DNA of 64,000 bases, from the NCBI GenBank assembly GCA_964649615.1, contig CAZYPW010000001.1, forward strand, positions 33,557 to 97,556, written 5' to 3'. A model generated the notes under the pieces. That model was not told the origin of the DNA. It ran no database searches and worked only from the letters and a program-made list of their open reading frames with translations. The position numbers were made by a program, and so were the translations under genes. Positions 3,604-45,255 of this stretch are shown here, one piece after another (position 1 is the stretch's first letter; every line of letters begins with the position of its first letter). The stretch is from an uncultured Gammaproteobacteria bacterium (GTDB taxonomy: Bacteria > Patescibacteriota > Microgenomatia > Daviesbacterales > UBA10151).

Positions 3604-6600
3604 ATGGCAGAAAGAATTATGGCAGATGCAGGGATACCAACAGAAGGAGCTTCACCAACAGAGCCAGCAACTGGTCCATCTCCAGAAGCAGGTGTTCAAC
3701 AGTCTGTCAAATCAGTTGGTTTTTTGGAAGAATACGACCCAAGTAAAAATTATACTTTTAGGCAAGAAGGCATTTACTCTGTTGCTGTTGATCCGCAAAC
3801 AGGTAAAGAAGTAGCCAGAGTACCAAGAATAGAAGGAGGAGCTTTACCTAATTGGCTTAAACCGTTCAGCCCTACTTTTAATAGTTTTTTTCAAGATTAC
3901 ACTAGAGTTTCAAAAGAATTTGCAGAAATAGAAGCTGTTCCTCGCCAGCATGTTCCGCGTCCCCACCGCTTTGAGTTTCATGCAATGTATGATCAACGGT
4001 TTAGGGAGTTTCATAGAGTTAAAACAGGCGTTGACCAATTTGTTGATAGTGCTTTGCAAAGAGGGCTTCTACATTTTGTTATTAATGATTTAAAAGCTTT
4101 GCATGTGCGTGCAACTCAACGTGTTAGCCGCTCAGAATTTGGATCTGAATCAGCTTCAGACTGGCAAGCTGAGCTGCGCAATTTTGCAGAAGGAGGCTAT
4201 AAGGAAACATTCTGGAATTATGGAGACGATGTTTTAAGAGCAGTATTTGGCAATATTCCCATAACAGTATTGCGTGAACAGTATGAAGGTGTAGGAGCTT
4301 TTGTAGCCTCCAAAATAGCAATTGCTTTAGAAAAAGACCTCAAAGGAATTGCTTTATCACCAGGCGAACTAGGCGATAGAATTTTTAGAGAGATAAAGGA
4401 AGATCGAAATCGGGCAGAAGAAAGAAGAAGAGAAAGAGCTACTGCTGATGAGATGTTGACATATAGTGATTGGAGAGAACGCTTTGATTTTAACTGGGCG
4501 CAAACCCCTGAAGAGCTGGAACTTTCCGTTTTTGCCTGGCTGGAGAAATTTGTGGCCCATTTGCCAGAAGCCACAATAGAAGAACTTAACAATGAATCAC
4601 TTACCTGGAAACGCAATGCTGTCAGTGCTCTGGAAAAAGCAGCTAACAGGTTGCGTATTTCAGAAAAAGACCCTTTTTATAAAGAACTAAAAGGTACAAT
4701 TGAGGGATATGTTGAGGTGCTCCGGGGAGTAAAGTTTTTGGAAACAGATGGTGGAGCCGAAGCCCACACGGTTGCCCTGGAAGAATTTGCCCATAATTTT
4801 AATGAAAAGCATGATGCTATTTATTTAGGCAATGCCAAATCTGCCATTATTCAAGCCTTTCTTGCCAAGCATAAGAATATTGCGATGGGAGATGATGGAA
4901 ATATTGAGAAGCCTCAATTCGGTGATATAGAAGATTTCAGGGGGAATATAGAAGAGCAGGCCAAAAGATATGCAGCAACCCATGAATTATATATCAGACC
5001 AGAAGATTTTGAGGAGAGAAGGATACAAAATAACGAGGGTTACGGGTGGGATGATGTAGTTGAGGAATTATTGCTTGTAGATAGTAGAGGTATGGCTCAA
5101 GCAGCTGTTTTAACAGATCCTATTGCTCAGGCAGAAGCTATAGTAAAAGTAGCTACCAGGACAGGTGTATTCAAAAACATAAAAGAAAGGTTAGACAAAG
5201 AAGAAGGATTTGACAGCTTGACTGTAGATCAAAGAAGGGATGTTATCAGAGACAGGATAAAAGCCAAGATTAGCCTGGCAGGTAATCAGCAGTTGCTCAG
5301 TGAAATTAATGCCATGAATCAAACAGAAGCTGACCAGGCATTATGGAAATACGTAAGAGATTTTAACCGAAAAATGGAAAGCCAGGGCCATAGGCTCTGG
5401 TTCCCCAGTAACTGGGATACAGTTAGATTAAGCATTAATAGGTCAACTAAGTTAGTAGACAGGGTTTTATCTGAAGAAGAACTGGAGGCCATGATAGAAG
5501 AAGTCAGCCCTTTTGTTATAGGTGGTAAACCAATTATGATTGATAAATTAACCCCTGAACAGATTGAGGCAGAAATAGCAAAAATAGCCGGGTTAAGTAC
5601 TACACAGAAGAGAGAACTACTGGAAGATGCTTTATTTGATAAACAACAAAGAGAAACTGAGGCAGAGAGGGCCTTTAATATCAATAGAGCTTATCAAAAA
5701 TTCTTAGGAGTGGATGCTAGGTGGGGCGGTATGGCTGTCAGAGTAGTTAATGATGATGGAGAGGTAGTACTAAGAAACGTCTGGGATATAGCACAAGAGA
5801 TATTGAAAGCCAAGATTGATGCAGAAGAGGCAGTTATCGAAGCCCAAGTGATTACCCACGAGGCAGCATTAAGAGCAAGAGGCGGATTAACAGCTGCTGA
5901 AATAGAGAAAGCAGTAACTGAAAGAAGAAGAATGTTAAGGCGGGATTCCACATTTGGCGCTACCTTAGCCTTAAGAGAAATAGGCATTGCTAACGATTTG
6001 CCAATCTGGAATTACTATTATTACAATGATCCTCAACGCATTCAAACTTTTGCCCCACTTGTAGGATATACCCATAATGATAAGACAGAAATAATAGAAC
6101 TTTTAGATAGGGGCAGAAGAGAAATGAGGGCGGTTTGGGATTATCTGGCAGATACTTATATGGATGGTAAAATCTTAATGGTAAAAGATGAACCAAATGT
6201 AACAGTAGATGCAAGCGGCCAGCCAGCAAATTTCCATCAAGAGAGAATGGATCGGGCAAGGGTCATTAATGAGGCTGGTGTATCAGTTTTAAGAGAAGTA
6301 TTTGAAGCCAGGTTTCAGCTTTCAACCAGTGGTGGAGTAGAAGTAGTTGACCTAATTTCCAGGGTAGGAGATTTAGGAATATATGATTTGCTTTGGGAAA
6401 TGGGGTGTAAGGATTTTAGGGAGTTTCAGGGATTTATTAAAAGAAGAGATGAAGTGGAGCTAAGAAAACAAAGTTTTTGGAATATCAGACAGTGGAGGGA
6501 CCCAATTACTTATGCAAAAAGGTTACGAGGGGCACATGCTGCCAGGCCATACCTGACAGGAGGAGATGTCAAAGGACAACGCAAACCTGGCTTGCTTCAG

Positions 6601-7377
6601 GAACCAATGATGGGTGCTTATAAATTTAGAGATGCGTTTGTTGATAGAAATAGCTGGGGAGGTAGTGGAAGCAGTGAAATAAAAAATAAAATAGATCAGA
6701 CTAACAGCGAGTTTAAGAAAGTACTCCAAGAGATTCTTGAGAATGATGGGAATTTTGCGAAATTAACTGTGCAAGAGCAAGATAAAGTGGTCGAAACAGG
6801 AGCTGGCATCTTAAGCACCCTGATAGAATATATGGAGGCTCTAAGGTATAAGATGAACAGAGCCGGGCTGGCTCCCAAAAATTGGAAATTGGACAATGAA
6901 TTAATATTTAGGCATTATGCCATAGAATTGTTAAAGAGGGCTCCATTACCAGGCAAAGCAGAAATCTTGGGAGGGGGTGAAAAGTTAGGAGATCAGGATT
7001 TAGGTTATGCTGTACAAGGCAGAAGTAAGTTGGCTATTAAGATATATGAAAATATTTTAAGAACCAGTTCTTACCATATTCTAGTGGGAAAAGACCGTCA
7101 AGTTTTTGATGATAAAGGTGTGGAGATTAAAGCAAGGATGGATACTGAACGAGCAAGGATACAGGCACAACCGTTAACTCCTGAACAACAGAACAGAGTT
7201 AATGCAAGAAGGACTTATCTAGCCTCTCTTAATACCACACCAGATATGCTAAATGAGGAGATTGCTAGATTAGAAAAACACTACAGGGAAGAAAGGCTCC
7301 ATAAAGAATTTGTGGGAGAGTGGCCAGCTAAATTAGCAGAAGCTGCCGAGCAATTACTACCGTTAAAACTTGGGTAA
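3604..7377 (+). CDS. Very large (1257 aa) soluble protein of unknown function; charged and coiled-coil rich.
   Basis: Uninterrupted ORF with no TM segments and no motif I recognise. It lies immediately upstream of the pilus/T4SS-like locus. Confidence 0.6.
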   Translation: MAERIMADAGIPTEGASPTEPATGPSPEAGVQQSVKSVGFLEEYDPSKNYTFRQEGIYSVAVDPQTGKEVARVPRIEGGALPNWLKPFSPTFNSFFQDYTRVSKEFAEIEAVPRQHVPRPHRFEFHAMYDQRFREFHRVKTGVDQFVDSALQRGLLHFVINDLKALHVRATQRVSRSEFGSESASDWQAELRNFAEGGYKETFWNYGDDVLRAVFGNIPITVLREQYEGVGAFVASKIAIALEKDLKGIALSPGELGDRIFREIKEDRNRAEERRRERATADEMLTYSDWRERFDFNWAQTPEELELSVFAWLEKFVAHLPEATIEELNNESLTWKRNAVSALEKAANRLRISEKDPFYKELKGTIEGYVEVLRGVKFLETDGGAEAHTVALEEFAHNFNEKHDAIYLGNAKSAIIQAFLAKHKNIAMGDDGNIEKPQFGDIEDFRGNIEEQAKRYAATHELYIRPEDFEERRIQNNEGYGWDDVVEELLLVDSRGMAQAAVLTDPIAQAEAIVKVATRTGVFKNIKERLDKEEGFDSLTVDQRRDVIRDRIKAKISLAGNQQLLSEINAMNQTEADQALWKYVRDFNRKMESQGHRLWFPSNWDTVRLSINRSTKLVDRVLSEEELEAMIEEVSPFVIGGKPIMIDKLTPEQIEAEIAKIAGLSTTQKRELLEDALFDKQQRETEAERAFNINRAYQKFLGVDARWGGMAVRVVNDDGEVVLRNVWDIAQEILKAKIDAEEAVIEAQVITHEAALRARGGLTAAEIEKAVTERRRMLRRDSTFGATLALREIGIANDLPIWNYYYYNDPQRIQTFAPLVGYTHNDKTEIIELLDRGRREMRAVWDYLADTYMDGKILMVKDEPNVTVDASGQPANFHQERMDRARVINEAGVSVLREVFEARFQLSTSGGVEVVDLISRVGDLGIYDLLWEMGCKDFREFQGFIKRRDEVELRKQSFWNIRQWRDPITYAKRLRGAHAARPYLTGGDVKGQRKPGLLQEPMMGAYKFRDAFVDRNSWGGSGSSEIKNKIDQTNSEFKKVLQEILENDGNFAKLTVQEQDKVVETGAGILSTLIEYMEALRYKMNRAGLAPKNWKLDNELIFRHYAIELLKRAPLPGKAEILGGGEKLGDQDLGYAVQGRSKLAIKIYENILRTSSYHILVGKDRQVFDDKGVEIKARMDTERARIQAQPLTPEQQNRVNARRTYLASLNTTPDMLNEEIARLEKHYREERLHKEFVGEWPAKLAEAAEQLLPLKLG

Positions 7378-7392
7378 TGTAAACTCTTTGTA

Positions 7393-9174
7393 TTAAGGCG
7401 ATTTTCTTTTCCACTTAAGAGGATTCCAGGGTGAAGCACTTCGATCTATGAATGTTCCTATACCGGGTTTCGTAGGACCATATTCGAATCCTCCAGTGCC
7501 AGGGTTAAGATAGTATCCCTTCTCTCCAAAAATATTCTGTTTAAACATTCCCCCTTGGCCACGAATAGCACCTGCTCCTTGTTCATAGTATCCTCTACCA
7601 CCCCTGATACCTCCTGATACTTCCTGTCCAATTAATTGTCCTGCCTGGCCCATTTTACCAATAGCGCTGACAATTATATCCGGAATTTTAGGCAATGCCA
7701 TTAAAGCTCCAAAAGCCAGTAAAATCTTAATAAATCCTAAATCTAAACCTCCAAACAAAGGGAAAGCAGTACCCTCTACAATATTAATTTTATCTGCGGC
7801 ATATACCGCTGGGACAAAGCTACTTTCTTCCATCTGGTTTGATTGAGTTACTTTAAGGGGGCCACCATAATCCTGACCCATTAAAAAGGCTACGAAATAA
7901 AATACAGCTAAAACAGCAGGAAATACTAAGATATTAGCAAGCAGCTTCAGCATCCAGCCGGTAGCAATGCTCTGCCTGCCTGGTAAAGCAGCTGCTAAAA
8001 AATGAAAAGGGGCACTAATTGTTAGGAAAATAATTGTTAAATAACTAGCGAGTAAACGCAAAAGCAGTTTTAACATCTGATATATTAGGGCAAAGGTGGC
8101 GATAAAACTTAACATCAATCCTACCCATGTGGTAGGAAAAGTAGCCACTGTTACCCCAGCAACTAGATTTATTAAAGGACTGGCAATCAGCCCATAAGGA
8201 GGAGGGATAGCTCCTGACAAGGGACTGATAAGTTGAGCACTAATAAAACCTGCCAGCAGCCTGATATAAAATTGAGTTTCACCGTTCATTTTCTCTAGGA
8301 TAGCGCCTAAGGCTTTAGAGGCATCATCCCAGGTAATGATATTTAGGAAGGGGCTAAAAATACTCAACATACTCTCAACAGAGATATGTTGTACTAGGTT
8401 TGTTCTTTGGGGATCATCTAGCTCATTTTGAGCAGCAGCAAAGAAATAACCCACAGCATTTGTGCCTATAAAAGCCGTATCTGAGATAGCTGCTGCCATA
8501 AAGTAACTGAATGTGATAAGGATCAGACCAAGTACTAATCCTGGTAATGCAGCCTGTGCTGTGATTACAGTTTGAGGATTAATTCTATTTCTAAACATTA
8601 CCATTAACCCAATAACTACAAAGATAATCACCATAATTAAGTAAGCTATATTTCTTGACACTTCCCAAAGTCTCAATACTGGATCTAAAACCCTAGCTGC
8701 TGATCCTACTACTTGAGCATTAACGGGTTTTACTATGCCAAATCCCTTTCCCACATAAGCTATATAATTGACTGTTCTAACAGGAGGATTGGTATACAAA
8801 GCAGTAATTAAGGAAGTTGTTGAACCTAATACCCCTCCTGATAAATCAACTTGGGATAAAACCGGTACCCCGGAAACATAAGTTAAACAAGGCTGGCCAA
8901 TTACAGATTGGCCAATCCCTAAACAAGAAAAAGTATGAAACATATTATGGATTAAAAGATCAGTGTAGATGGGAGAGGTGGGGGAGATGGTAGATGGTAG
9001 ATGGTAGTTGGTAGTTGGTAGTGGAGAAGCAGAAGGGGTAGATGTCTGAGCATGGATAGGAGTAGCATAAAGCGTAAAAGTTAAAAGGCAAAAGGTAAAA
9101 GTCAAAAATGCAAGTAAAAAGTAAAAAGTTTTTAGAAATTTTGAATTTTGAATTGTAATTTTGACATTTGACAT
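7393..9174 (-). CDS. Polytopic membrane protein; VirB6/TrbL/CedA-like candidate channel component.
   Basis: N-terminal signal peptide, then a ~130-aa exported segment, at least 6 TM helices, and a Gly-rich C-terminal tail. It sits directly adjacent to the tandem pilin-like genes. Confidence 0.4.
   Translation of the reverse strand: MSNVKITIQNSKFLKTFYFLLAFLTFTFCLLTFTLYATPIHAQTSTPSASPLPTTNYHLPSTISPTSPIYTDLLIHNMFHTFSCLGIGQSVIGQPCLTYVSGVPVLSQVDLSGGVLGSTTSLITALYTNPPVRTVNYIAYVGKGFGIVKPVNAQVVGSAARVLDPVLRLWEVSRNIAYLIMVIIFVVIGLMVMFRNRINPQTVITAQAALPGLVLGLILITFSYFMAAAISDTAFIGTNAVGYFFAAAQNELDDPQRTNLVQHISVESMLSIFSPFLNIITWDDASKALGAILEKMNGETQFYIRLLAGFISAQLISPLSGAIPPPYGLIASPLINLVAGVTVATFPTTWVGLMLSFIATFALIYQMLKLLLRLLASYLTIIFLTISAPFHFLAAALPGRQSIATGWMLKLLANILVFPAVLAVFYFVAFLMGQDYGGPLKVTQSNQMEESSFVPAVYAADKINIVEGTAFPLFGGLDLGFIKILLAFGALMALPKIPDIIVSAIGKMGQAGQLIGQEVSGGIRGGRGYYEQGAGAIRGQGGMFKQNIFGEKGYYLNPGTGGFEYGPTKPGIGTFIDRSASPWNPLKWKRKSP
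9089..9163. repeat. Left arm of a ~75-nt inverted repeat; encodes KITIQNSKFLKTFYFLLAFLTF in the 593-aa membrane protein.
   Basis: Its reverse complement is nearly identical to 13915-13990. Confidence 0.85.
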
Positions 9175-9229
9175 TTGAATTTTGACCTTTCTTCCTAAGA
9201 TTAAACCAAAACTTAAATACTTTCAAGTT

Positions 9230-9538
9230 TTAAGGTTTGCACCAATCAGTGCCACCAAAGTTACATAAAATTCCAATATTAAAAGAAGTTACCTCAACTC
9301 CTGTGGCTATTTGTATGAGCTGTAGTATCAGCCACCCTACTGCCATAAAAACTATGCCTAAGAGTGCCCAGGTAATGGTCATTTTGGCAGCTTCCAAGTT
9401 TTTAGGGTCTCCACCTGACCTTAAATATTTATATCCTGCAAAAGTAATCATCACAAACATAGTAATAATCCCCAAGCCTACAATTGAGGAAATGATGCTA
9501 TTTAAAATATCTTGTATTTGTTGTAATCCAGCAGGCAT
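9230..9538 (-). CDS. VirB2/TrbC-like (T4SS-type) pilin paralog.
   Basis: Small two-TM protein with the conserved loop AGYKYLRSGGDPKNLEAAKMTITWALLG, which is shared with its neighbours. Confidence 0.5.
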   Translation of the reverse strand: MPAGLQQIQDILNSIISSIVGLGIITMFVMITFAGYKYLRSGGDPKNLEAAKMTITWALLGIVFMAVGWLILQLIQIATGVEVTSFNIGILCNFGGTDWCKP

Positions 9539-9589
9539 ATATCTAAAGTAACACTATATCAAATACGATGGTATATATAAATTAATTAA

Positions 9590-9964
9590 TTACGGAGCGG
9601 TAGGTATGGTAATCTTTGTTAGGCCACCGCTAAATCCTAAGAATTCAGCTGCCACATTTGCCAAAGCAAAAGCCACTGCCAAAACTGCCAGCCCAATTAG
9701 GGCATTAACTATTTTACTTCTGGCTTTGCCAACAGCTTCTTTATCTCCGCCAGAAGTAATCCAATCAAATGCTCCCCATACCAGATAGATTAATACTAAA
9801 AGTAAGGCCACAGCAAAAGCCAGTTGTATAACATTACCTATAAATACCCCTATATCTTTATAGCCTTGGGTAGGGGCTTGAATATTAAGATCAAAAACAG
9901 CATAAGCACTGGCTGCTGCAATAAAATAAGTTACAGCAGAAGAAACAATGGCTAATTTTTTCAT
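9590..9964 (-). CDS. VirB2/TrbC-like pilin paralog.
   Basis: Signal peptide, then TM, then the motif LVWGAFDWITSGGDKEAVGKARSKIVNALIGL, then a second TM. Confidence 0.55.
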   Translation of the reverse strand: MKKLAIVSSAVTYFIAAASAYAVFDLNIQAPTQGYKDIGVFIGNVIQLAFAVALLLVLIYLVWGAFDWITSGGDKEAVGKARSKIVNALIGLAVLAVAFALANVAAEFLGFSGGLTKITIPTAP

Positions 9965-28662: not shown

Positions 28663-28740
28663 AAAATGAAGCTAAGTTCGAATAAGCAAATCTTGCGATC
28701 CTTCGGATCTAAAGAACTATCTGGCTCCCCTGAGTTGGAG
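28663..28740. repeat. attL-like direct repeat: a partial copy of the tRNA-Asn 3' end (GGGGAGCCA) plus ~45 nt of its downstream flank, with a 27-nt hairpin insertion.
   Basis: AAAATGAAGCTAAGTTCGAATAAG...AACTATCTGGCTCCC matches 39003-39042. Confidence 0.7.
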
Positions 28741-28834: not shown

Positions 28835-30319
28835 ATGTTATTGTATTATTTGACAAACATGACAACCCAACTCCCTTTAATAGGCCAAAATTATGAGTCT
28901 GAAAATATTGAGAACAAAACTGTCGCTGAAGGTGAGGTACCACAGGATTTATGGGAACCAATATCTGCATTCAGTAATGCTGATGGTGGCCACATACGGC
29001 TAGGGGTTGATGGTAGTGGAAATAGGATTGGCGTTCCTCAGGAAAAAATCGAAAAACTACAAACGGATGTTATTACCTTATGTAGTTCAGGATTTAATCA
29101 TAGATTATACCCGGATTTAACTGTAGATCAGGATAATGTAATAAATGTGTACATTCCTCCCGCACCTGCTTCACTAAGACCAATATATTCAACTAGTCGA
29201 GGCGTTCCAAGAGGTGGTCGGGTTCGTGTTGGCCCTTCAAATGTTCAACTGGATGATGAATGGTTACGTCGTTTTGCTATTCAGGCTAGTGGTGGAGCAG
29301 AGTTACTAGTGTTCCCTGGAGACTATGAACAACATTTGGACACAAGTGCAATAAACAGATATTTAGAAGCTGTGAGAAAAAAGCGAGGGAACGTATATGT
29401 AAACTTATCTATTCAGGAAATTCTTTTAAAACTTAGGGCTATTACACCCGAAGGCATGGTTACTTTATTTGGCTTACTAGCTTTTAGCACACCGACCGCC
29501 TTACAAGAATTAACAGCCCCAACTGTCAATGTTGCAGTTACACAATATGCGGGCACAAATAAAGTAAATCCTAATGATATTGCGGAGGTTAGCTTAGATG
29601 ATAAAGAGTTTTCTGGAAATGTAGTTTCTCAATTTGAGAACGCTTTAAAATTTATATCATCTAAATTACCTACAAGAAGCAGGATAGATCCAGAAGGAAA
29701 AAGACAAGATTACCTTGCTATTCCCACATTAGCTCTTCGTGAAACTCTAGCTAATGCTCTTGTTCACAGAGATTATACTTCTACTGGAGGCAGGGTTCAG
29801 ATCGATTTATATACAGATCGTATTGAGTTTGCTAATCCGGGGAGAAGCTTAATACCCCTTGAGTTACTTGAGACGGCACATCCCCAGACACGTAATCCCC
29901 TCCTTATGAGCTATCTAAGAGATTTAGATATCACTGAACACAGAGGAAGAGGCATTAGAACCATTAAAACCTCGCTTAAATCAGCAGGGCTTGCAGAGCC
30001 AACATTTATCCATAAGCATGATTGGTTTGTGGCAACAATTTTCAGCTCCGCTTTCATTAAAGACGCTGATCAAATATGGTTACAACAATTCCAAGATCAG
30101 AAGTTAAGCGAACATCAATTAAATGCCCTCGTTCATGTTAAACATAACCCAAGTGGAATCAGCAATTCTGAATACAGAAACCTAAACAATATGACAAACG
30201 TCAGAGACGACATCAGGGCTAAAAAGGAATTAGCTAAGTTAACAAAACTTGGGTTATTCAACAAGGTAGGAGAAAATCGTTATCGTCGATACATACTAAA
30301 CCCAGAATTAACAGAATAA
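28835..30319 (+). CDS. Schlafen/AlbA_2 domain plus HATPase_c_4 (RecG-C-terminal-like) putative DNA-binding regulator.
   Basis: N-terminal WEPISAFSNADGGHIRLGV (AlbA_2). C-terminal ETLANALVHRDYTSTGGRVQIDLYTDRIEFANPG (HATPase_c_4-like). Confidence 0.55.
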   Translation: MLLYYLTNMTTQLPLIGQNYESENIENKTVAEGEVPQDLWEPISAFSNADGGHIRLGVDGSGNRIGVPQEKIEKLQTDVITLCSSGFNHRLYPDLTVDQDNVINVYIPPAPASLRPIYSTSRGVPRGGRVRVGPSNVQLDDEWLRRFAIQASGGAELLVFPGDYEQHLDTSAINRYLEAVRKKRGNVYVNLSIQEILLKLRAITPEGMVTLFGLLAFSTPTALQELTAPTVNVAVTQYAGTNKVNPNDIAEVSLDDKEFSGNVVSQFENALKFISSKLPTRSRIDPEGKRQDYLAIPTLALRETLANALVHRDYTSTGGRVQIDLYTDRIEFANPGRSLIPLELLETAHPQTRNPLLMSYLRDLDITEHRGRGIRTIKTSLKSAGLAEPTFIHKHDWFVATIFSSAFIKDADQIWLQQFQDQKLSEHQLNALVHVKHNPSGISNSEYRNLNNMTNVRDDIRAKKELAKLTKLGLFNKVGENRYRRYILNPELTE

Positions 30320-30425
30320 TTCTATCGACCTTTCTATCGACCCCCTCCTTATATGTGAAGAGCCGCCAAATGCGCTACAACGCCTTTTAGCCTTCTATCG
30401 ACCTTTCTATCGACTTTCTATCGAC
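30320..30425. repeat. Five copies of the 10-mer TTCTATCGAC in direct orientation (iteron-like).
   Basis: Copies at 30320, 30332, 30393, 30405 and 30416. Confidence 0.8.
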
Positions 30426-30555
30426 CATATTAACGAAGTTTAAGTGGTTACGGTTCATTACTCATTGCACACCCCAGAGTGTGGTAGGTAGACACCCTCT
30501 TTACAGCAAAAAGTGTTGTAAAAGTTTAATTTTAAGAGTAATATGATAAAAATCA

Positions 30556-30884: not shown

Positions 30885-32456
30885 TCAAACCACAGTTGAG
30901 GAAAAATTTTGACTTTTTGACGCAAGATCAAACGTCAAAATTTGCTCCCTTTGTAGGGAATTACCCGAATGAATAACAGGCTCATTTTTGGAAGGTTTCT
31001 TCAATATATCTTTCACTTCTGGTGATAGAATGGCATTTACAATCTTGCCTTTTTTAACTAAGAATCTTTCCCAGAATAAACCAAGGTAAAATCTTTTAAG
31101 CACTGGTTCTGCGTCCTCATAAGCCTGTCCTATATCTTGAGCTAGAGCTAATAGGCGTTGCACCACCTTTAATGACCTTTCATGGTTAGCTGTAACTTGA
31201 TTGAGTTGGTTTTTAATGCCTTTCAGATCAGCTTCATAACGAGGGTATATTCTTTGAAAACCTTCTGCGCTTAGAGTTTTGTGAATTAACCAGTTGTCCT
31301 CTGCTTCCCTCATAGCTGCCTCAATCTTTGACTGGCGGTTAATAAGAGTTTGAGATTCATTATCACTATTTTGTCTAAAATCTTCCAGGATATGCTTAGC
31401 TCTTTCTACCAGATCCTTAGCATAAGACTCACTAATTTGGATAGCATGAAACCAATCCTGTACTTCCTTCTCAAGGTCAGCTACTGTAACATAACTGCCC
31501 TTGCTACAGGTCTTACAATAATAATGTTCAAATATAAGACCATTCTTTTTAACATGCTTATCAGCCCAAAGCCTCCTATTACAAATAGCACAAAAGACAA
31601 AACCTCTTAAAAGGTAATTATGAACCCTTTGTCTGGAAGCATTTTGATTATGGGCAGTCATTACCTCTTGGCATAAATTAAAGGTTGCTTCATCTATTAG
31701 TGGGACATGCTCACCTCTATAAATTACCCCCTTCCAAGGCACTTTTCCAATATAAAGTGGGTCTCTAAGACAATACGCTAAAAGGCTGACTCCAACCTGA
31801 CCTCCTGTAGTTGATCTTAGCCCTAGTTCATAAAGGTGGTTTGACAATGCTTGTACAGAAAAGTTGCCAGTAGAATAGAGTTTGAAGGCTTGAGTCAAAT
31901 AAGTTCCTTTATCTGGGTCTACGCCAATAATCCTTTGGTCAAACTTGCTGATAGGTTTTTCGTTGAATACATTGATATAACCAATTTTGGGTTTACCAGG
32001 ATAGTAACCAGCCTTAGCTTTTTCCTCCATCACCTTTGATACTTTTCTGCCTGTAATTTGAGATTGGAAAGCATTAACGCCTGCAAGAATCGTATCAATC
32101 AAATTACCTTCTGCACTATCATCAATCATCAATTGGTTTATTGAGATAAGTTGAGTATTAGCCTTTTTCAAAAGAGCCTTAATAGTAAGATGATCTAGGG
32201 TATCACGGGCTAATCTATCCGTATCTAAAACCAAAATATAGTCTACATCGCCATCCTGAACCCTCCCTAGCATGTCTTTTAGACCAGCTCTGTTCATATT
32301 AGTGGCTGACTTACCTTCATCTTTATAAACCCCTATGATGGTCGTATCGTTATCTTCCGCCCATCTTCTGCATCTGTTTATTTGGGTATCAATAGAAAGA
32401 CCCTCTTCGGCCTGCTCATCAGTGGATACTCGTGAGTAAATTAAGGCTTTTTTCAT
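30885..32456 (-). CDS. Large serine recombinase (resolvase catalytic domain, recombinase domain, zinc ribbon).
   Basis: ALIYSRVSTDEQ...YILVLDTDRLARD catalytic domain. C-terminal CAICNRRLW...HYYCKTC. Confidence 0.85.
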   Translation of the reverse strand: MKKALIYSRVSTDEQAEEGLSIDTQINRCRRWAEDNDTTIIGVYKDEGKSATNMNRAGLKDMLGRVQDGDVDYILVLDTDRLARDTLDHLTIKALLKKANTQLISINQLMIDDSAEGNLIDTILAGVNAFQSQITGRKVSKVMEEKAKAGYYPGKPKIGYINVFNEKPISKFDQRIIGVDPDKGTYLTQAFKLYSTGNFSVQALSNHLYELGLRSTTGGQVGVSLLAYCLRDPLYIGKVPWKGVIYRGEHVPLIDEATFNLCQEVMTAHNQNASRQRVHNYLLRGFVFCAICNRRLWADKHVKKNGLIFEHYYCKTCSKGSYVTVADLEKEVQDWFHAIQISESYAKDLVERAKHILEDFRQNSDNESQTLINRQSKIEAAMREAEDNWLIHKTLSAEGFQRIYPRYEADLKGIKNQLNQVTANHERSLKVVQRLLALAQDIGQAYEDAEPVLKRFYLGLFWERFLVKKGKIVNAILSPEVKDILKKPSKNEPVIHSGNSLQREQILTFDLASKSQNFSSTVV

Positions 32457-32891: not shown

Positions 32892-34085
32892 TTACTTTTC
32901 ATCTTCGGCAACCCCTTCCGCTTTGTCCTCTACTTCCTGATCTATAAGTATATAGAGCTTTTTATTGCCTTGAACTACATAATCTATCTTCCTTAATTCT
33001 AGAAGCTCTCTTGCGGCGTTTTTGACTGTCGTAGACCCATACTTACCAGTTGGTGTTAATTTTTGGATTATTTCTGTTTGGCTCTGAATACCTGATTCTA
33101 AAAGAGATAAGATATCCTCTTTAGCCTGATCAACTTTTTCTACCTCAGACTCAAGGAAATCTAAAAACTTGAAGCCTGTATCGCCATCTGTAAAAGTGGG
33201 AAATTTAACCAAAAAGGATTCTATCGGCTTATCTGATCTTAAAGCGGCCTGGGTGATTTTGAGTGTTAGATCATCTTTTCTTTCAACGATTAAAAGGCAA
33301 TCTAGCATGGCCAAGATGTCACTTGAGCCTCTTAACTTATCTCCAGCTTCCCTCTTAAAAAATCCTTCCTTTCCATGGTGATGAATGAATATTATGCTGA
33401 CACCCAACTCAAGCAATATCTTAAATCTATATTGAACTTCGGCAATTACCTGTGAGCTATTCTCTTCCCCCTTAAAAATGCGTCTAAAACTGTCAACGAT
33501 GATTACCTTTATATTTTTATCTTGAATAATTTTGATAACTTCATTCATAAATCTATCTGTGTCTAGAAATAATTTGGTATCCGTACAGAAATAAATGGGT
33601 AATGTTTGATTATCAGTAAGTAGTTTAATCCTCTCTTGAATCAGTTTTTGAGGGTCTTCTTTACTGATAAACAAAACTGCGCTTTGTTGAGTTTCAAATT
33701 CATCCAAAAACTTTGCTCCTAATGCTAAACAGATCGCCAAATAGAGTGCCCAGAAACTCTTACCAACTTTTGGTTTTCCAGATATACAGGTAATTCCGTT
33801 GTCTGGTACTAAACGATCAACGATCCATTTATTGGGAGGGAAATCTTTTTGCCTAAGTTCCTCTAGAGAAACTACATCCAGGGTGGGAGTATTATTGGTC
33901 AATGGGTCATTACTATATATACTCTGACTTGTTGACTGGGACGGATCAGCTTCAACAGGTAGCTGGGCAGAACCATTTGTTGAATTAGATGTAGGTTGGT
34001 CTTCTTTCTCCTGCTCTGATAAATAGTGACTTAGTTCGTCAATTTCTTTATTACTAAGTTGTTCCTCATCCATATCAGCCTCCAT
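32892..34085 (-). CDS. AAA_25/RecA-like (RepA/DnaB-like) replication ATPase with an acidic N-terminal region.
   Basis: ISGKPKVGKSFWALYLAICLALG...VIIVDSF...SIIFIHHHGKEG. Confidence 0.6.
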   Translation of the reverse strand: MEADMDEEQLSNKEIDELSHYLSEQEKEDQPTSNSTNGSAQLPVEADPSQSTSQSIYSNDPLTNNTPTLDVVSLEELRQKDFPPNKWIVDRLVPDNGITCISGKPKVGKSFWALYLAICLALGAKFLDEFETQQSAVLFISKEDPQKLIQERIKLLTDNQTLPIYFCTDTKLFLDTDRFMNEVIKIIQDKNIKVIIVDSFRRIFKGEENSSQVIAEVQYRFKILLELGVSIIFIHHHGKEGFFKREAGDKLRGSSDILAMLDCLLIVERKDDLTLKITQAALRSDKPIESFLVKFPTFTDGDTGFKFLDFLESEVEKVDQAKEDILSLLESGIQSQTEIIQKLTPTGKYGSTTVKNAARELLELRKIDYVVQGNKKLYILIDQEVEDKAEGVAEDEK

Positions 34086-34317
34086 ATATCCTGCTTTTTA
34101 GAAATCTTTGAGCTTCCCAAAATGAATTAGGTTCAACCTTTAAAGTCCGTTGCCAAAACAGCTCTATAATTTGTTGGAGTTCTTTTGTTTGAGGGAATAT
34201 AAAAATGGATTTACCCTCTGGAGTTTTCTCAATAGAATCAAGTGAAATACCTAAACTAATTAAAGTAGCTGCGACAGGTAACGAAACAGTTTCATAGTAA
34301 GTCTCATTTTTATTCAT
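34075..34317 (-). CDS. Hypothetical small protein.
   Basis: ORF only; overlaps the RepA-like gene start by 11 nt. Confidence 0.3.
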   Translation of the reverse strand: MNKNETYYETVSLPVAATLISLGISLDSIEKTPEGKSIFIFPQTKELQQIIELFWQRTLKVEPNSFWEAQRFLKSRIYGG

Positions 34318-35994: not shown

Positions 35995-36114
35995 CTACCT
36001 GCCAGTTTATTCTCTGCTAGATTATCTTGATAATATACTCTAAGTCATTCAAAAAGCAAGATATATCTAGTAAAGATTTCTCTAGCAATCTACTAAGTTA
36101 GTAGGTGGATTGCT

Positions 36115-36327
36115 ATGAACTATAATTTTCTTTATAAAAATCTTGCTGGAAATATAGAAAAACTAAGAAAAGAGAAGGGAATGACGCAAGAGAAATTGGC
36201 GGAAAAGGCTGGATTGCATAGAGCCTACTTTTGGGATATTGAAAATGGCAGGAATATATCAATCAAAACTGCTTATAAAATCGCCCATGCTCTCGGAGTA
36301 AAGCTATCAGAGCTGTTTAATTTTTAA
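36115..36327 (+). CDS. XRE-family HTH transcriptional regulator.
   Basis: LRKEKGMTQEKLAEKAGLHRAYFWDIENGRNISIKTAYKIAHALGVKLSELF. Confidence 0.8.
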   Translation: MNYNFLYKNLAGNIEKLRKEKGMTQEKLAEKAGLHRAYFWDIENGRNISIKTAYKIAHALGVKLSELFNF

Positions 36328-36379
36328 CCTTCACCCCCTGCTGGATCGGTAATTTTCTCTCTGTTATACTCGCAGTAAT

Positions 36380-37501
36380 ATGATTAGGAATTTTAAACCT
36401 AATAAAAATCCTCCTCTTTCTGGATTGGATCGTATTAGGGCATATAACCAAAATCAAAAAATTTGGGAATATCTCAAGCGGTATCAAAGTAATAGTTTTG
36501 TTCAGAAAAAGTTGAGGAGAGAGATAACTAGAAATAGAGGACAAATAAATTTAAAAGCAGCCCAAATATCCTCTTTAATGGTTCAGAGCGAAAAATACTA
36601 TGAAGCAGCTGTTAATGCACCTTTAGAAATTAAGCCCCTTATTCTGTATTACGGAATGGTGGGATTGTCCAAATCTCTTATTCTTTCTGGAGATAATACC
36701 TACACTCTATCAGCACTAGCACCTGATAATAGAGATCATTCAACTCATGGATTAAAGTTTGGTACTCAAAACCCCAATGATATATCTATTAGAGATGGAA
36801 AAAGAATATCAAATGAGTTTTGTTATGCAGCAACTTCACCAACAAGAATCGGATTATACAATTTATTAAGAGCTTGTTACTCAAATACTCCTATACCAAA
36901 TGATACTCGTGTTGCTATACAGGACTTACTTTCCCTCGTACCTGAAATTTATAAAGAATATCGTGCTTACTTTAAGCAAAAACCTCGCTCTTGGGGAGCT
37001 GATGCTCATTTTGGGGTAAATAATATTAACGATACAATACAGTTGATAGTATTTGAGGATTGGTACTACCATACTCAACAAATTAACAGAAGAGAAAGAT
37101 ACCCAAATAGTATTCTAAGAAATTTCCCAGAGCTTAGTACGCTTTATACAAGAGAACCAAACTCAGATGATAAGTTCAGACTTAATAATAATGCGGTAAG
37201 CATTGATGACTATATTTATGTTAGTCAGCTTATGACTTTAGAATCTTTTGCACTTAAAAGATTAAATGGTTTTAGTGTGTCAGACATAGATATACACTTT
37301 ATTTTAATGTATATCCTAAGTAATTTAGTACGTTATAGACAAGACAAGTGGTCAAGGCTTATCAGAAGATTAGATAATGATGAAATGTTTTTAATTGAAA
37401 GTTTTATTGAAATATCTTCCGTTAAATTTCCTTATGTAATTTTAAGAGAACTAGATAATATTGATTATGTTTTTACAGGACAGGTTGCTACCTGGAGCTG
37501 A
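36380..37501 (+). CDS. YaaC-like protein (function unknown).
   Basis: The region YYEAAVNAPLEIKPLILYYGMVGLSKSLIL resembles the conserved core of B. subtilis YaaC as I recall it. Confidence 0.5.
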   Translation: MIRNFKPNKNPPLSGLDRIRAYNQNQKIWEYLKRYQSNSFVQKKLRREITRNRGQINLKAAQISSLMVQSEKYYEAAVNAPLEIKPLILYYGMVGLSKSLILSGDNTYTLSALAPDNRDHSTHGLKFGTQNPNDISIRDGKRISNEFCYAATSPTRIGLYNLLRACYSNTPIPNDTRVAIQDLLSLVPEIYKEYRAYFKQKPRSWGADAHFGVNNINDTIQLIVFEDWYYHTQQINRRERYPNSILRNFPELSTLYTREPNSDDKFRLNNNAVSIDDYIYVSQLMTLESFALKRLNGFSVSDIDIHFILMYILSNLVRYRQDKWSRLIRRLDNDEMFLIESFIEISSVKFPYVILRELDNIDYVFTGQVATWS

Positions 37502-37505
37502 TCCG

Positions 37506-38174
37506 ATGAAGGATGAAAATATACTTAGAATTAAATTTAATGGTAGAAGTTTAATTAAGCTGATAAGGTCAGCCAAAGGAAGGGACTTTTTATTATCCAC
37601 ACCTACTATCAAAAATAAGGGGTATTTTGTGAGTAACCATTTTACATTACATACACCAAATAGTAGATTAACCTGGAAAATTACTAAAGTTAAGGAAGGC
37701 GATCAAGACGCTTTAAAATCAATGCTTTATTTAGTAAAAGATCACCCAGTTTATAAAAAGAAGGTAACATACCACGCAGATGGAGTAACTCCAAAAGACT
37801 TAGATATGTATGAGGGAAAAATATTGGACTTGAGTAATCCATCAGAATTTCAATTTGGAACAACTGTAGCTTTAAATATGGAGAATACTTCAATTGATGA
37901 ATACTTTGATCCAGCAAAGACGAAGGATAGAGAGTTTAAGTGGCTCAAAGACATTGTCATACCAAAAGTTTTCAAAGACAAAGTCACAATCAGATGGTTC
38001 ATATCTAAAAACTTTCAAGGGAGGATCACAGAGTTTGTAAAGGGGTATAAAGAACCAATAGATGATTATTTTTTGATTCGGGAACTAAACAGCACAGGGG
38101 AAGAATATACCTTCTTATTTATCATTATCTATGGTTTTCCTGAATTAAAGGATAAGGATAAAAAAACCTATTAG
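37506..38174 (+). CDS. Hypothetical protein, operonic with the YaaC-like gene (4-nt gap).
   Basis: ORF only. The start is assigned to the ATG at 37506 rather than the overlapping upstream start. Confidence 0.4.
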   Translation: MKDENILRIKFNGRSLIKLIRSAKGRDFLLSTPTIKNKGYFVSNHFTLHTPNSRLTWKITKVKEGDQDALKSMLYLVKDHPVYKKKVTYHADGVTPKDLDMYEGKILDLSNPSEFQFGTTVALNMENTSIDEYFDPAKTKDREFKWLKDIVIPKVFKDKVTIRWFISKNFQGRITEFVKGYKEPIDDYFLIRELNSTGEEYTFLFIIIYGFPELKDKDKKTY

Positions 38175-38195
38175 AAAACTTTAACTTGTAAATCT

Positions 38196-38897
38196 TTAGA
38201 CTTTTGTTTTTAGAGAGTTATTGCCTCTGTTATACTTACCCCTCAATACTTGAGCTTTCTCTGGCAAGATATAAGCATTTCGGAGGGTAGTTTCAATAAT
38301 ATCCAGTCCAGTGTTCAGCTCTTCTTCAAGCGGTTCTTGTAATTCATGAGCAGAAGCATTTCCCATATATCTATTAAGATGGAGTAACTCTGCTTCTTGA
38401 TCAGTCATCAAACCCATCTTGGCTAATCCGTCAATTTTTTTCTCAAGGTCACCAGTAATTATACCTTTATCTTTACATATTGCTTCGATAACGGCTCGCA
38501 TACCAATACTTGTAAGTATTGGTAATTTTTTATTAAAGGCCGTGACACACTCTTTGTATATTCTTGCAACAATTTTAGGTATATAGTGATGATCTTCTAT
38601 TGGGGTTTTTGTTTCGTGAGGGGATGGATAAATTGTTGTAACTACATCAAACTCTCCAGTTTGAGGATTATAATCTTCACTAAATACGTATTCTTCTAAA
38701 AGGCAAACCGCCTCACAGCCTTGACATTGGAGCGTATAGAAGGTAGAGACTGTCCACATCCCATCCTCGTTGTCCCAACTATCCTTTTTTTGAACTTTAA
38801 ATAAAATTTTGTGATTGGTGGCTTGCTTGCATATCCTGCAAAAAATCTTTCTCGTTTCTTCTATATTCTTTTTTCGAGTTTTGCTTAGTGGACTCAT
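38196..38897 (-). CDS. DUF4145-domain protein with an N-terminal CxxC...CxxC zinc ribbon.
   Basis: N-terminal CRICKQ...CQGCEA. C-terminal helical domain ending ...NRYMGNASAHEL (DUF4145-like). Confidence 0.5.
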   Translation of the reverse strand: MSPLSKTRKKNIEETRKIFCRICKQATNHKILFKVQKKDSWDNEDGMWTVSTFYTLQCQGCEAVCLLEEYVFSEDYNPQTGEFDVVTTIYPSPHETKTPIEDHHYIPKIVARIYKECVTAFNKKLPILTSIGMRAVIEAICKDKGIITGDLEKKIDGLAKMGLMTDQEAELLHLNRYMGNASAHELQEPLEEELNTGLDIIETTLRNAYILPEKAQVLRGKYNRGNNSLKTKV

Positions 38898-39002: not shown

Positions 39003-39042
39003 AAAATGAAGCTAAGTTCGAGTAAGAACTATCTGGCTCCCC
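39003..39042. repeat. attR-like direct repeat overlapping the 3' end of tRNA-Asn.
   Basis: See 28663-28740. Confidence 0.7.
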
Positions 39043-39304
39043 CGCGTGGATTCGAACCACGAACCTTGATCTTACAAGTGCTCCTAATTTACATCAGGAC
39101 TTGGACTATCTCATAACCTTAGCTTTCTTTAGGTTCCGGGCGTATAGTCTCTGAACCTTCCCCGATTTCATCGGGGCTTGGCTGCGGATTATCCTTCGAT
39201 TACACTCAGGACTTCCCGACAATTAACCCAGTTTTTCAACTCCGATTTCTCGGAGAAGCTGCAATATTTTACAGGATCCCGCTCTACCATTGAGCTACAG
39301 GGGA
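39034..39304 (-). tRNA. tRNA-Asn (GUU) interrupted by a 196-nt group I intron in the anticodon loop. Exon 1 is 39271-39304 and exon 2 (with CCA) is 39034-39074.
   Basis: Joined exons: TCCCCTGTAGCTCAATGGTAGAGCGGGATCCTGT|TAAGATCAAGGTTCGTGGTTCGAATCCACGCGGGGGAGCCA. This closely resembles E. coli tRNA-Asn, with anticodon loop CTGTTAA. Confidence 0.75.
39075..39270 (-). other. Group I intron (196 nt, no ORF).
   Basis: The 5' exon ends in U and pairs with the internal guide GCAG, giving a U-G wobble at the splice site. A P2 hairpin CTCCGA-GAAA-TCGGAG is present. Conserved R element GTTCAGAGACTATA and S element GAGATAGTCC form P7. The intron ends in G. Confidence 0.75.
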
Positions 39305-44545: not shown

Positions 44546-44974
44546 ATGAAGCTTCTAAATTATTTAATAAAACTTCTTCCGACTAAACCTATTTATGCCC
44601 ATTGTGATATCCCCTGCGGCATTTATGATCCGCATAATGCTCAACTGGCCTCACAAACTGTTTTAAAGATGGTCCAAAAAATAAATGAACTTCCTAAAGA
44701 AAACCCAACTATTGTAGATAGAAATAACTTCGTCAGAATGGTAAAGGTGAAGGAGGAGCATGCAGAACTTTGTAAGAAAGAAGTATTGATTTTATGGACA
44801 GATTATTTTAAAGAAGAACACTTAGAAAAATTTCCAAATCTTCATGATCTGGTTTGGAAAACCACCAAACTTTGTTCAGATAACAAAAGAGCTGTAGATG
44901 AGGTTAAAGCTCAAGAATTAATAGAATCTGTGGATAAGGTTGCAGATATATTTGCTCAAACAAAAAAAGCGTGA
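44546..44974 (+). CDS. sodN: Nickel superoxide dismutase (NiSOD) precursor.
   Basis: Ni-hook HCDIPCGIYDPHNAQ follows a short leader (cleavage after ...IYA). The rest of the protein is similar to Streptomyces SodN. Confidence 0.85.
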   Translation: MKLLNYLIKLLPTKPIYAHCDIPCGIYDPHNAQLASQTVLKMVQKINELPKENPTIVDRNNFVRMVKVKEEHAELCKKEVLILWTDYFKEEHLEKFPNLHDLVWKTTKLCSDNKRAVDEVKAQELIESVDKVADIFAQTKKA

Positions 44975-45255
44975 GCTTCCCTCTTAAAAGATTTACAGTT
45001 TCTGGAAATTCCATGCTGCCAACTCTCAAACCAGGCCAGGATGTTTTGGTTTGGTGTTGGTTTAATAAATATAAAGTGGGGGATATTGTAGCTTTCAAAA
45101 AAAACGGCAAAGAAATGATTAAACGTATTCATTTATATCACGGCCGTAGCATAAGTGTATTAGGGGATAATGAAAAAGAGAGCACTGATAGTAGAAATTT
45201 TGGGTCAATAGAGAAATCTCAAATAATTGGTAAAGTGGTTTGGTTTCAAAGGTAG
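44971..45255 (+). CDS. sodX: S26-family signal-peptidase-like NiSOD maturation protease (SodX).
   Basis: SGNSMLPTLKPGQDVLV...GDIVAF. It overlaps sodN by 4 nt. Confidence 0.8.
   Translation: MSFPLKRFTVSGNSMLPTLKPGQDVLVWCWFNKYKVGDIVAFKKNGKEMIKRIHLYHGRSISVLGDNEKESTDSRNFGSIEKSQIIGKVVWFQR

Follow-up and report, generated by a model that had tools for sequence, protein, structure and literature searches.

Independent cargo genes at one end of a serine-recombinase element include a likely divergent member of the RAZR/PD-T7-4 defence family

The window analysed here, 64,000 nucleotides (nt) of contig CAZYPW010000001.1 from an uncultured bacterium, carries an integrative element of approximately 10.3 kb, and the four genes at the right end of this element (36115-38897) are the subject of this study. 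A sequence-only reading had proposed them as one candidate defence module within a mobile element. All four open reading frames (ORFs) are present, with matches to HTH_3, PF14175 and DUF4145, and they are assigned to the cargo of the element because of its attachment-site (att) repeats and its serine recombinase. The neighbourhoods of their homologues show that the four genes are independent accessory passengers and not a conserved module. On balance, we favour the view that this cargo end of a serine-recombinase element is a mini defence island of independent genes, with one divergent known system and two leads.

36115..36327, plus strand: XRE-family helix-turn-helix (HTH) regulator, 70 amino acids (aa), HTH_3 match with E 1.6e-16
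36380..37501, plus strand: YaaC-family protein, 373 aa, with a predicted helical, HEPN-like core interrupted by an alpha/beta insert
37506..38174, plus strand: 222-aa protein of a small family without Pfam model, predicted beta-rich fold
38196..38897, minus strand: zinc-ribbon plus DUF4145 (HEPN) protein, 233 aa, with CxxC...CxxC ahead of DUF4145 (4.6e-16) and a full-length match to phrog_1305 (2.3e-35)

The YaaC-like, 222-aa and DUF4145 proteins all have homologues elsewhere, and therefore the three larger ORFs are real genes rather than chance ORFs. To follow their linkage, 44 further, distinct YaaC loci (491 kb) were translated in six frames and scanned with profile hidden Markov models (HMMs). 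A homologue of the 222-aa protein occurred in none of these 44 loci, and YaaC in none of the three other loci of the 222-aa family (L017, L019 and L021). The reciprocal search covered 80 metagenomic loci with a Zn-ribbon-DUF4145 gene, 31 of which measure 6 kb or more (416 kb including two viral loci), and neither a YaaC nor a 222-aa gene was present in any of the 80. The YaaC-like and 222-aa genes had been described as a tightly coupled pair; the 4-nt gap between them is real, but as a conserved unit the pair does not hold, the 222-aa family never accompanying YaaC elsewhere. Likewise, the idea of a single module of XRE, YaaC-like, 222-aa and DUF4145 genes has to be given up, given that the linkage of the XRE, 222-aa and DUF4145 genes is not kept across loci, and the Schlafen/AlbA_2-HATPase protein thought to adjoin them (28835-30319) is encoded at the element's other end, some 6 kb distant. 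The arrangement of the window does recur in four more short contigs, but with identical proteins and hence in the same lineage, and the closest relative of the YaaC-like protein, 84% identical and located in L005, has neither a 222-aa nor a DUF4145 gene beside it.

A Zn-ribbon-DUF4145 gene adjoins or lies near YaaC in three unrelated lineages. Besides the window, these are the Nitrospirales contig L053, where it is situated directly upstream of the YaaC-like gene (1036-1692 and 1777-2847) and encodes a DUF4145 protein without the HEPN arginine, and Paraburkholderia lacunae (L035), where it is found about 1.9 kb from YaaC (5887-7056 and 8949-9743) with MazG-like and HNH-like genes between. The functional pair of YaaC and Zn-ribbon-DUF4145 suggested by L053 and L035 was rejected on account of the absence of YaaC from all 80 reciprocal loci, and co-localisation in islands explains the three co-occurrences better than functional pairing.

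The known system in this cargo is likely that of the DUF4145 protein, which we take, on transitive profile matches and architecture, to be a divergent member of the RAZR/PD-T7-4 family. The earlier statement that DUF4145 has no established function is outdated: the family was assigned to the HEPN RNase superfamily in 2013, with mention of zinc-ribbon fusions (PMC3710099), and PD-T7-4, a single gene of 661 nt described as 'Zn finger-HEPN', was selected for resistance to T7 (PMC9519451). This defence RNase has been characterised under its new name RAZR; it forms a 24-mer ring, it recognises ring-shaped phage proteins (portal, Gp77) by binding them with a zinc-finger domain of the Cys4 type, and its DUF4145 HEPN site with R146 and H154 cuts single-stranded RNA, resulting in abortive infection (PMC13017515). 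The window protein shares the N-terminal Cys4 zinc ribbon and the C-terminal DUF4145 HEPN domain, the R-x7-H spacing (R176/H184 versus R146/H154 in RAZR), and the format of a stand-alone single gene for about 220-230 aa on a mobile element. Its gene is convergent to the YaaC-like and 222-aa genes and is the last one before attR.

Seven residues (C20, C23, C58, C61, R176, N180 and H184) are invariant among the window protein and 15 relatives, and the PADLOC model for PD-T7-4 (PDLC04109) matches nine of these 16 family members with a best E of 4e-11. Five of the relatives, P0068-P0072, which are 50-56% identical to the window protein, align with positions ~12-155 of the 211 in the PD-T7-4 HMM (E 1.2e-4 to 1.9e-8), a stretch that spans the zinc finger and the HEPN core. 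Two results weigh against this assignment: the window protein itself gives no match to the PD-T7-4 model of PADLOC with a cutoff as loose as E<=10, and the profile of its family retrieved no RAZR chain from the PDB sequences. A tblastn search of phage genomes with the DUF4145 protein gave one weak match only. By homology, the RAZR-like protein would act alone as an abortive-infection RNase, its Cys4 zinc ribbon sensing the portal or another ring-shaped protein of the phage; it would assemble on the phage ring, whereupon the HEPN site R176/H184 would cut single-stranded RNA and translation would stop. The abortive-infection or restriction-like role once suggested for the whole locus is credible for this protein, but not for the four genes as a single system.

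The 222-aa gene is mobile in its own right and encodes a protein whose predicted fold falls into no known class. Its ATG (37506) follows the YaaC stop codon TGA (37499-37501) by 4 nt, with GGAG 8 nt upstream, and is preferred over TTG 37461 or the 235-aa database call because homologues share that N-terminus; the product comprises 222 aa plus stop, the 223 residues given earlier having included the stop codon. No match was obtained in Pfam, NCBIfam, PHROG or PADLOC, and none of the 23 family members examined has a Pfam match. An exhaustive HMMER search among 1.84 billion representatives yielded 26 matches at E<=0.001, while a word-indexed homologue search returned the protein itself only. Structure prediction, which the sequence-only reading had recommended, gave a confident, mostly beta AlphaFold2 model from 23 sequences (predicted local distance difference test, pLDDT, 94.2; predicted template-modelling score, pTM, 0.88) with no relative in PDB or BFVD (in the latter nothing at E<=0.001). 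The family carries a conserved H-x-T-x-H...K signature and, as a confidently modelled fold without structural relative, is a testable object.

The contexts of this family are mixed. In L021 (3193-6517), the family member P0040 begins about 10 nt after the Septu genes PtuA/PtuB (4e-160 and 5e-66) and a Mrr restriction gene comes next, but in L017 the gene is located between rpmG and an M50 peptidase gene and in L019 near smpB, both without defence genes. A separate observation concerns P0058, a protein of 1201 aa in which seven repeated stretches match residues ~135-185 of the 222-aa protein; judged by this sequence similarity, part of the fold may occur as a repeat unit elsewhere.

The YaaC-like protein matches Pfam PF14175 with 134.8 bits (gathering cutoff 27) over profile positions 3-307 of 307, and all 33 aligned homologues match PF14175 as well. 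Its AlphaFold2 model, built on the 33-sequence alignment (pLDDT 92.3, pTM 0.92), consists of long helices at 53-78 and 85-102, an alpha/beta insert at ~103-301, and helices at 302-319, 321-328 and 336-359, and it contains the four-helix up-and-down bundle typical of HEPN proteins. Invariant in the family are Q69, P86, L87, Y91, G92, H123, G124, R318, Y319, W324 and P351. The motif 'LVRYRQDKW', with the invariant R318-x5-W324, forms the end of helix 3 and the short next helix. Judged from the secondary-structure layout, this stretch falls where the Rx4-6H motif lies in the canonical HEPN fold. A conserved histidine after R318 is absent from the YaaC-like family, which thus lacks the Rx4-6H catalytic motif, and a histidine at R+8 is seen in a few distant members only.

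At the sequence level, no relationship to HEPN proteins or to known defence families emerged. The hhalign probability against the DUF4145 family was 0.1, none of the 33 members had a HEPN Pfam match at E<=1, and searches with the YaaC-like protein found nothing in PADLOC or NCBIfam and only two weak matches of unknown function in PHROGs (E 0.018 and 0.062). When the PDB sequences were searched with the YaaC-like, 222-aa and DUF4145 proteins, singly and as family profiles, nothing meaningful came up, and a literature search revealed no link between YaaC or PF14175 and defence or HEPN. Since the invariant R-x5-W would stand in place of the catalytic Rx4-6H, we read the protein as non-canonical: it is probably not a canonical HEPN RNase, and it may serve as a subunit for binding or sensing or have an enzymatic activity based on the invariant H123. 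PF14175 thereby gains a predicted fold assignment, HEPN-like with tryptophan in place of the catalytic histidine. Neither this assignment nor the consistent occurrence in islands with variable partners is recorded in the literature searched or in PADLOC.

The genomic contexts of the close YaaC clade, outside the window, are as follows.

L005: PbeA (5e-236) and PbeC (4e-107) of phosphorothioate-type defence, Dam-like methylase
L009: GajA/GajB (GajB 4.7e-117), genes resembling type I restriction-modification (R-M), and a DUF2779 gene that shares 4 nt with the start of YaaC
L011-L013: HNH gene with 8-nt overlap, Mrr, DUF3800; a DUF5659/serine-recombinase element like that of the window
L016: GajB-like helicase, 219-aa gene with 8-nt overlap, serine recombinase, Vsr and Dcm
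L061: SLFN_AlbA_2, AAA_15/21 ATPase
L007 and L014: no obvious defence genes

Defence genes are thus found within 6-8 kb in five of the seven contexts. Strong PADLOC matches confirm three of the five (PbeA/PbeC in L005, GajB in L009, GajB-like in L016), and for L011 and L061 the evidence consists of Pfam domains, among them Mrr, HNH, DUF3800, SLFN_AlbA_2 and AAA_15. The expectation that YaaC-like proteins recur in defence contexts was borne out for the close homologues, which occur among GajB, PbeA/PbeC, type I R-M-like, Mrr and HNH genes and in serine-recombinase elements. The contig with the closest relative (L005 / L025, CAZKCV010000011.1) has a GC content of 33.9% and is binned as 'uncultured Gammaproteobacteria', which looks like mis-binning or recent transfer.

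A wider scan with one genome per species yielded 36 YaaC loci, and in the 24 whose neighbours were analysed these almost never recur. The exception is a TIR protein of about 360 aa encoded directly downstream, within ~20-35 nt, of a distant YaaC homologue in five acidobacterial loci (YaaC homologues at L027 7082-8167, L029 7075-8157, L030 7198-8277, L034 7180-8274 and L036 1417-2505). This protein matches TIR_2 (1.2e-19), PADLOC PDC-S66 (1.5e-65) and ThsB (6.8e-35), and a two-gene YaaC-TIR system in these bacteria is possible. Other neighbours in the wider set include MazF, Gp49, a Schlafen helicase, PDDEXK_4, type I R-M subunits and insertion sequence (IS) elements, but tRNA synthetases, ThiC and an amidase are found near distant homologues too. 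The notion that the coupled neighbours belong to one hidden family was discarded, as no pairwise similarity beyond noise was detected at E<=1. Several 'upstream ORFs' in high-GC YaaC loci look spurious. Two IMG/VR contigs, L143 and L144, bear distant YaaC-like genes.

Taken together, the window's YaaC clade behaves as an island gene coupled to varied enzymatic neighbours, which qualitatively fits a component of a conflict system. We hold a conflict role for this clade tentatively, at not quite even chances. By its predicted structure, the YaaC-like protein would be a non-canonical HEPN-fold conflict component. A bolder formulation, which we regard as unlikely in its full extent, is that the island clade represents an unrecognised HEPN-derived anti-phage or anti-plasmid component whose R-x5-W pocket is pseudo-catalytic and which carries an alpha/beta domain as an insertion, acting as a constant sensor or regulator with interchangeable effectors. 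The effector would be a TIR protein in Acidobacteria and an HNH or DUF2779 nuclease in further uncultured lineages; in the window, the new-fold 222-aa protein with its active-site-like H-x-T-x-H...K would take this part. A defence function of the clade, if confirmed, would mean one more modular immune family and would explain a widespread domain of unknown function.

The alternative that deserves most attention is that the YaaC-like and 222-aa proteins have no defence role and serve the element or the cell otherwise, for instance in regulation or in nucleotide or RNA metabolism, leaving the RAZR-like gene as the sole immune gene. Several points weigh on its side and against the conflict reading. 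In Bacillus subtilis, the prototype yaaC belongs to the core genes, lies next to guaB and co-evolves with the core genes of Firmicutes (PMC11141002, PMC3814617), neither the YaaC-like nor the 222-aa protein matches any PADLOC model, and recognisable defence genes are lacking in L007, L014, L017 and L019, just as housekeeping genes accompany distant YaaC homologues. Furthermore, the support that the neighbourhood counts lend to a conflict role is qualitative, and we infer both the placing of R-x5-W at the HEPN Rx4-6H position, from the secondary-structure layout, and the role of H123. Orthologs in housekeeping contexts, which had been named in advance as evidence against a defence role, were thus found by half: B. 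subtilis yaaC is such a gene, but the close relatives sit in variable contexts. The B. subtilis gene is a distant branch relative to the window protein, and because the Firmicute prototype is a core gene whereas the window's clade is island-like, the YaaC family is functionally heterogeneous. The defence genes in five of the seven close-clade contexts, the overlap or 4-nt coupling of YaaC with HNH, DUF2779 and TIR genes, the Zn-ribbon-DUF4145 genes beside or near YaaC in three unrelated lineages and the rarely repeating neighbours, which are typical of island genes, all argue the other way, and we consider the absence of any defence role rather unlikely. Should the YaaC clade nevertheless not be involved in defence, the locus would be an ordinary cargo region of a mobile element with one known abortive-infection gene.

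The XRE regulator is most likely the element's own switch regulator, because it occupies the divergent junction with the genes for replication and recombination, where element regulators are usually found; it is oriented divergently from the minus-strand core genes. One further feature lies at its start.

36083..36115, no strand: inverted repeat with 11-nt arms and an 11-nt spacer, 91% complementary, overlapping the XRE ribosome-binding site and start codon

From its sequence and position, this repeat is a possible operator or hairpin. The XRE gene is separated from the YaaC-like gene on the same strand by 52 nt, and the YaaC-like and 222-aa genes are probably co-transcribed with it, a view to which promoter and terminator scans of the locus, no better than those of shuffled sequence, lend no support. 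The spacing of 52 and 4 nt on one strand would also suit a toxin-antitoxin or addiction module, with XRE as antitoxin and repressor and the HEPN-like YaaC protein, with or without the 222-aa protein, as toxin. XRE does resemble HipB/HigA/Y4mF-type antitoxins as well as R-M controllers, and HEPN-fold proteins are often toxins (PMC3710099). However, an XRE gene directly upstream of YaaC is found in none of the seven other close-clade contexts (L005, L007, L009, L011, L014, L016 and L061), the only HTH_3 gene among them being that of L016, downstream of YaaC on the opposite strand, so that the conserved antitoxin/toxin adjacency of type II systems is missing. The lack of the Rx4-6H motif in YaaC and the location of XRE at the divergent junction with core genes also speak against such a module, which we judge improbable.

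A system of three or four interdependent genes, to which the 4-nt gap with a good Shine-Dalgarno sequence ahead of the 222-aa gene, the four contigs of the same lineage and the loci L053 and L035 might point, is highly improbable and already largely refuted by the neighbourhood data, namely the separation of YaaC from the 222-aa family in 44 plus 3 other loci, the 80 Zn-ribbon-DUF4145 loci devoid of either gene and the L005 relative without such neighbours, as well as by the function of PD-T7-4/RAZR as a single gene (PMC9519451, PMC13017515).

The element that carries these independent genes is bounded by imperfect two-part direct repeats (28663-28735 and 39003-39047), its insertion point being the 3' end of a tRNA-Asn gene interrupted by an intron. 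Its remaining features and the target are listed below.

28663..28735, no strand: left att-like direct repeat, whose halves match 39003-39026 (96%) and 39024-39047 (92%)
28835..30319, plus strand: SLFN_AlbA_2 plus HATPase_c_4 protein (Pfam 1.1e-09 and 8.1e-20), left-end cargo between the att repeats
30885..32456, minus strand: large serine recombinase (Resolvase 1.1e-30, Recombinase 9.2e-08, Zn_ribbon_recom 2.2e-04)
32892-34085, minus strand: AAA_25 ATPase of the element core (Pfam 5.4e-28)
34075-34317, minus strand: DUF5659 protein of the element core (Pfam 3.8e-13)
39003..39047, no strand: right att-like direct repeat, sharing the last 14 nt (3' end) of tRNA-Asn
39034..39304, minus strand: tRNA-Asn(GTT), the integration target, found by ARAGORN with introns allowed; 196-nt intron in the anticodon loop

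The left att copy contains a 28-nt insert that carries a GATCC-TTCG-GGATC hairpin. The intron of tRNA-Asn belongs to group I (Rfam Intron_gpI RF00028, 92.1 bits, E 4.5e-23, 39082-39280, minus strand), and the standard tRNA scan missed the gene because of this interruption. Just 3' of the SLFN_AlbA_2 gene (30320-30437), a 22-nt unit is present in three direct copies, each unit made of two TTCTATCGAC half-units with a CT join; these could be iteron-like or recombinase-binding repeats. Beyond the element, at 44546-45255, a Ni-superoxide-dismutase-like ORF with an N-terminal HCDIPCGIYDP motif comes first and a small signal-peptidase-like ORF second, with an overlap of 4 nt; inspected by eye only, they look like a sodN/sodX pair.

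Several known systems invite comparison with this locus. In phage lambda, the defence genes rexA and rexB are transcribed with the mobile element's repressor gene cI (cI-rexA-rexB). By analogy, the window has an XRE/HTH gene at the switch region followed by accessory genes on the same strand, which may be expressed behind it as rexAB is behind cI. The best PADLOC match of XRE is the R-M 'Control_protein' model (3.5e-19), but neither a restriction enzyme nor a methyltransferase domain was detected among the element genes scanned with Pfam and PADLOC, so that XRE does not qualify as an R-M controller (C) protein. The acidobacterial YaaC with its ThsB-like TIR protein resembles a pair of signal producer and effector as in Thoeris-like TIR pairs (PDC-S66/PDC-S54), whereas the window has no TIR gene and YaaC is not ThsA-like, having no SIR2, SLOG or Macro domain; the five genomes may also share this pairing through common ancestry.

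For the YaaC-like protein, the HEPN superfamily structures used for comparison were AF0298/UPF0332 (2hsb), the sacsin HEPN domain (3o10) and a HEPN toxin (5yep) (PMC3710099), and 1wol, 2jpu, 1ufb, Roquin, 5yep and the KNTase C-domain were listed with its fold as further structures. In contrast to these, it has R318-x5-W324 instead of Rx4-6H and an alpha/beta insert of about 200 residues between helices 2 and 3, and it shows no profile-level sequence similarity to HEPN families. With B. subtilis YaaC it shares the Pfam family over its full length (134.8 bits), but the prototype is a conserved chromosomal gene, whereas the window protein and its close relatives are carried patchily by islands and by integrative elements.

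The comparison with RAZR concerns the DUF4145 protein. It is very divergent and stems from a low-GC uncultured host and not from E. coli, and its trigger, oligomeric state and RNase activity are predictions from homology. DS-38, another Zn-finger-HEPN defence protein, shares only the HEPN part with PD-T7-4 (bioRxiv 10.1101/2025.01.08.631726); therefore, the zinc finger of the window protein is putatively equivalent to that of RAZR. If the protein is RAZR-like, the RAZR/PD-T7-4 family reaches into an uncultured bacterium of low GC content, where a small integrative element carries it, and the very divergent sequence would help to ask what within the zinc finger determines the trigger specificity.

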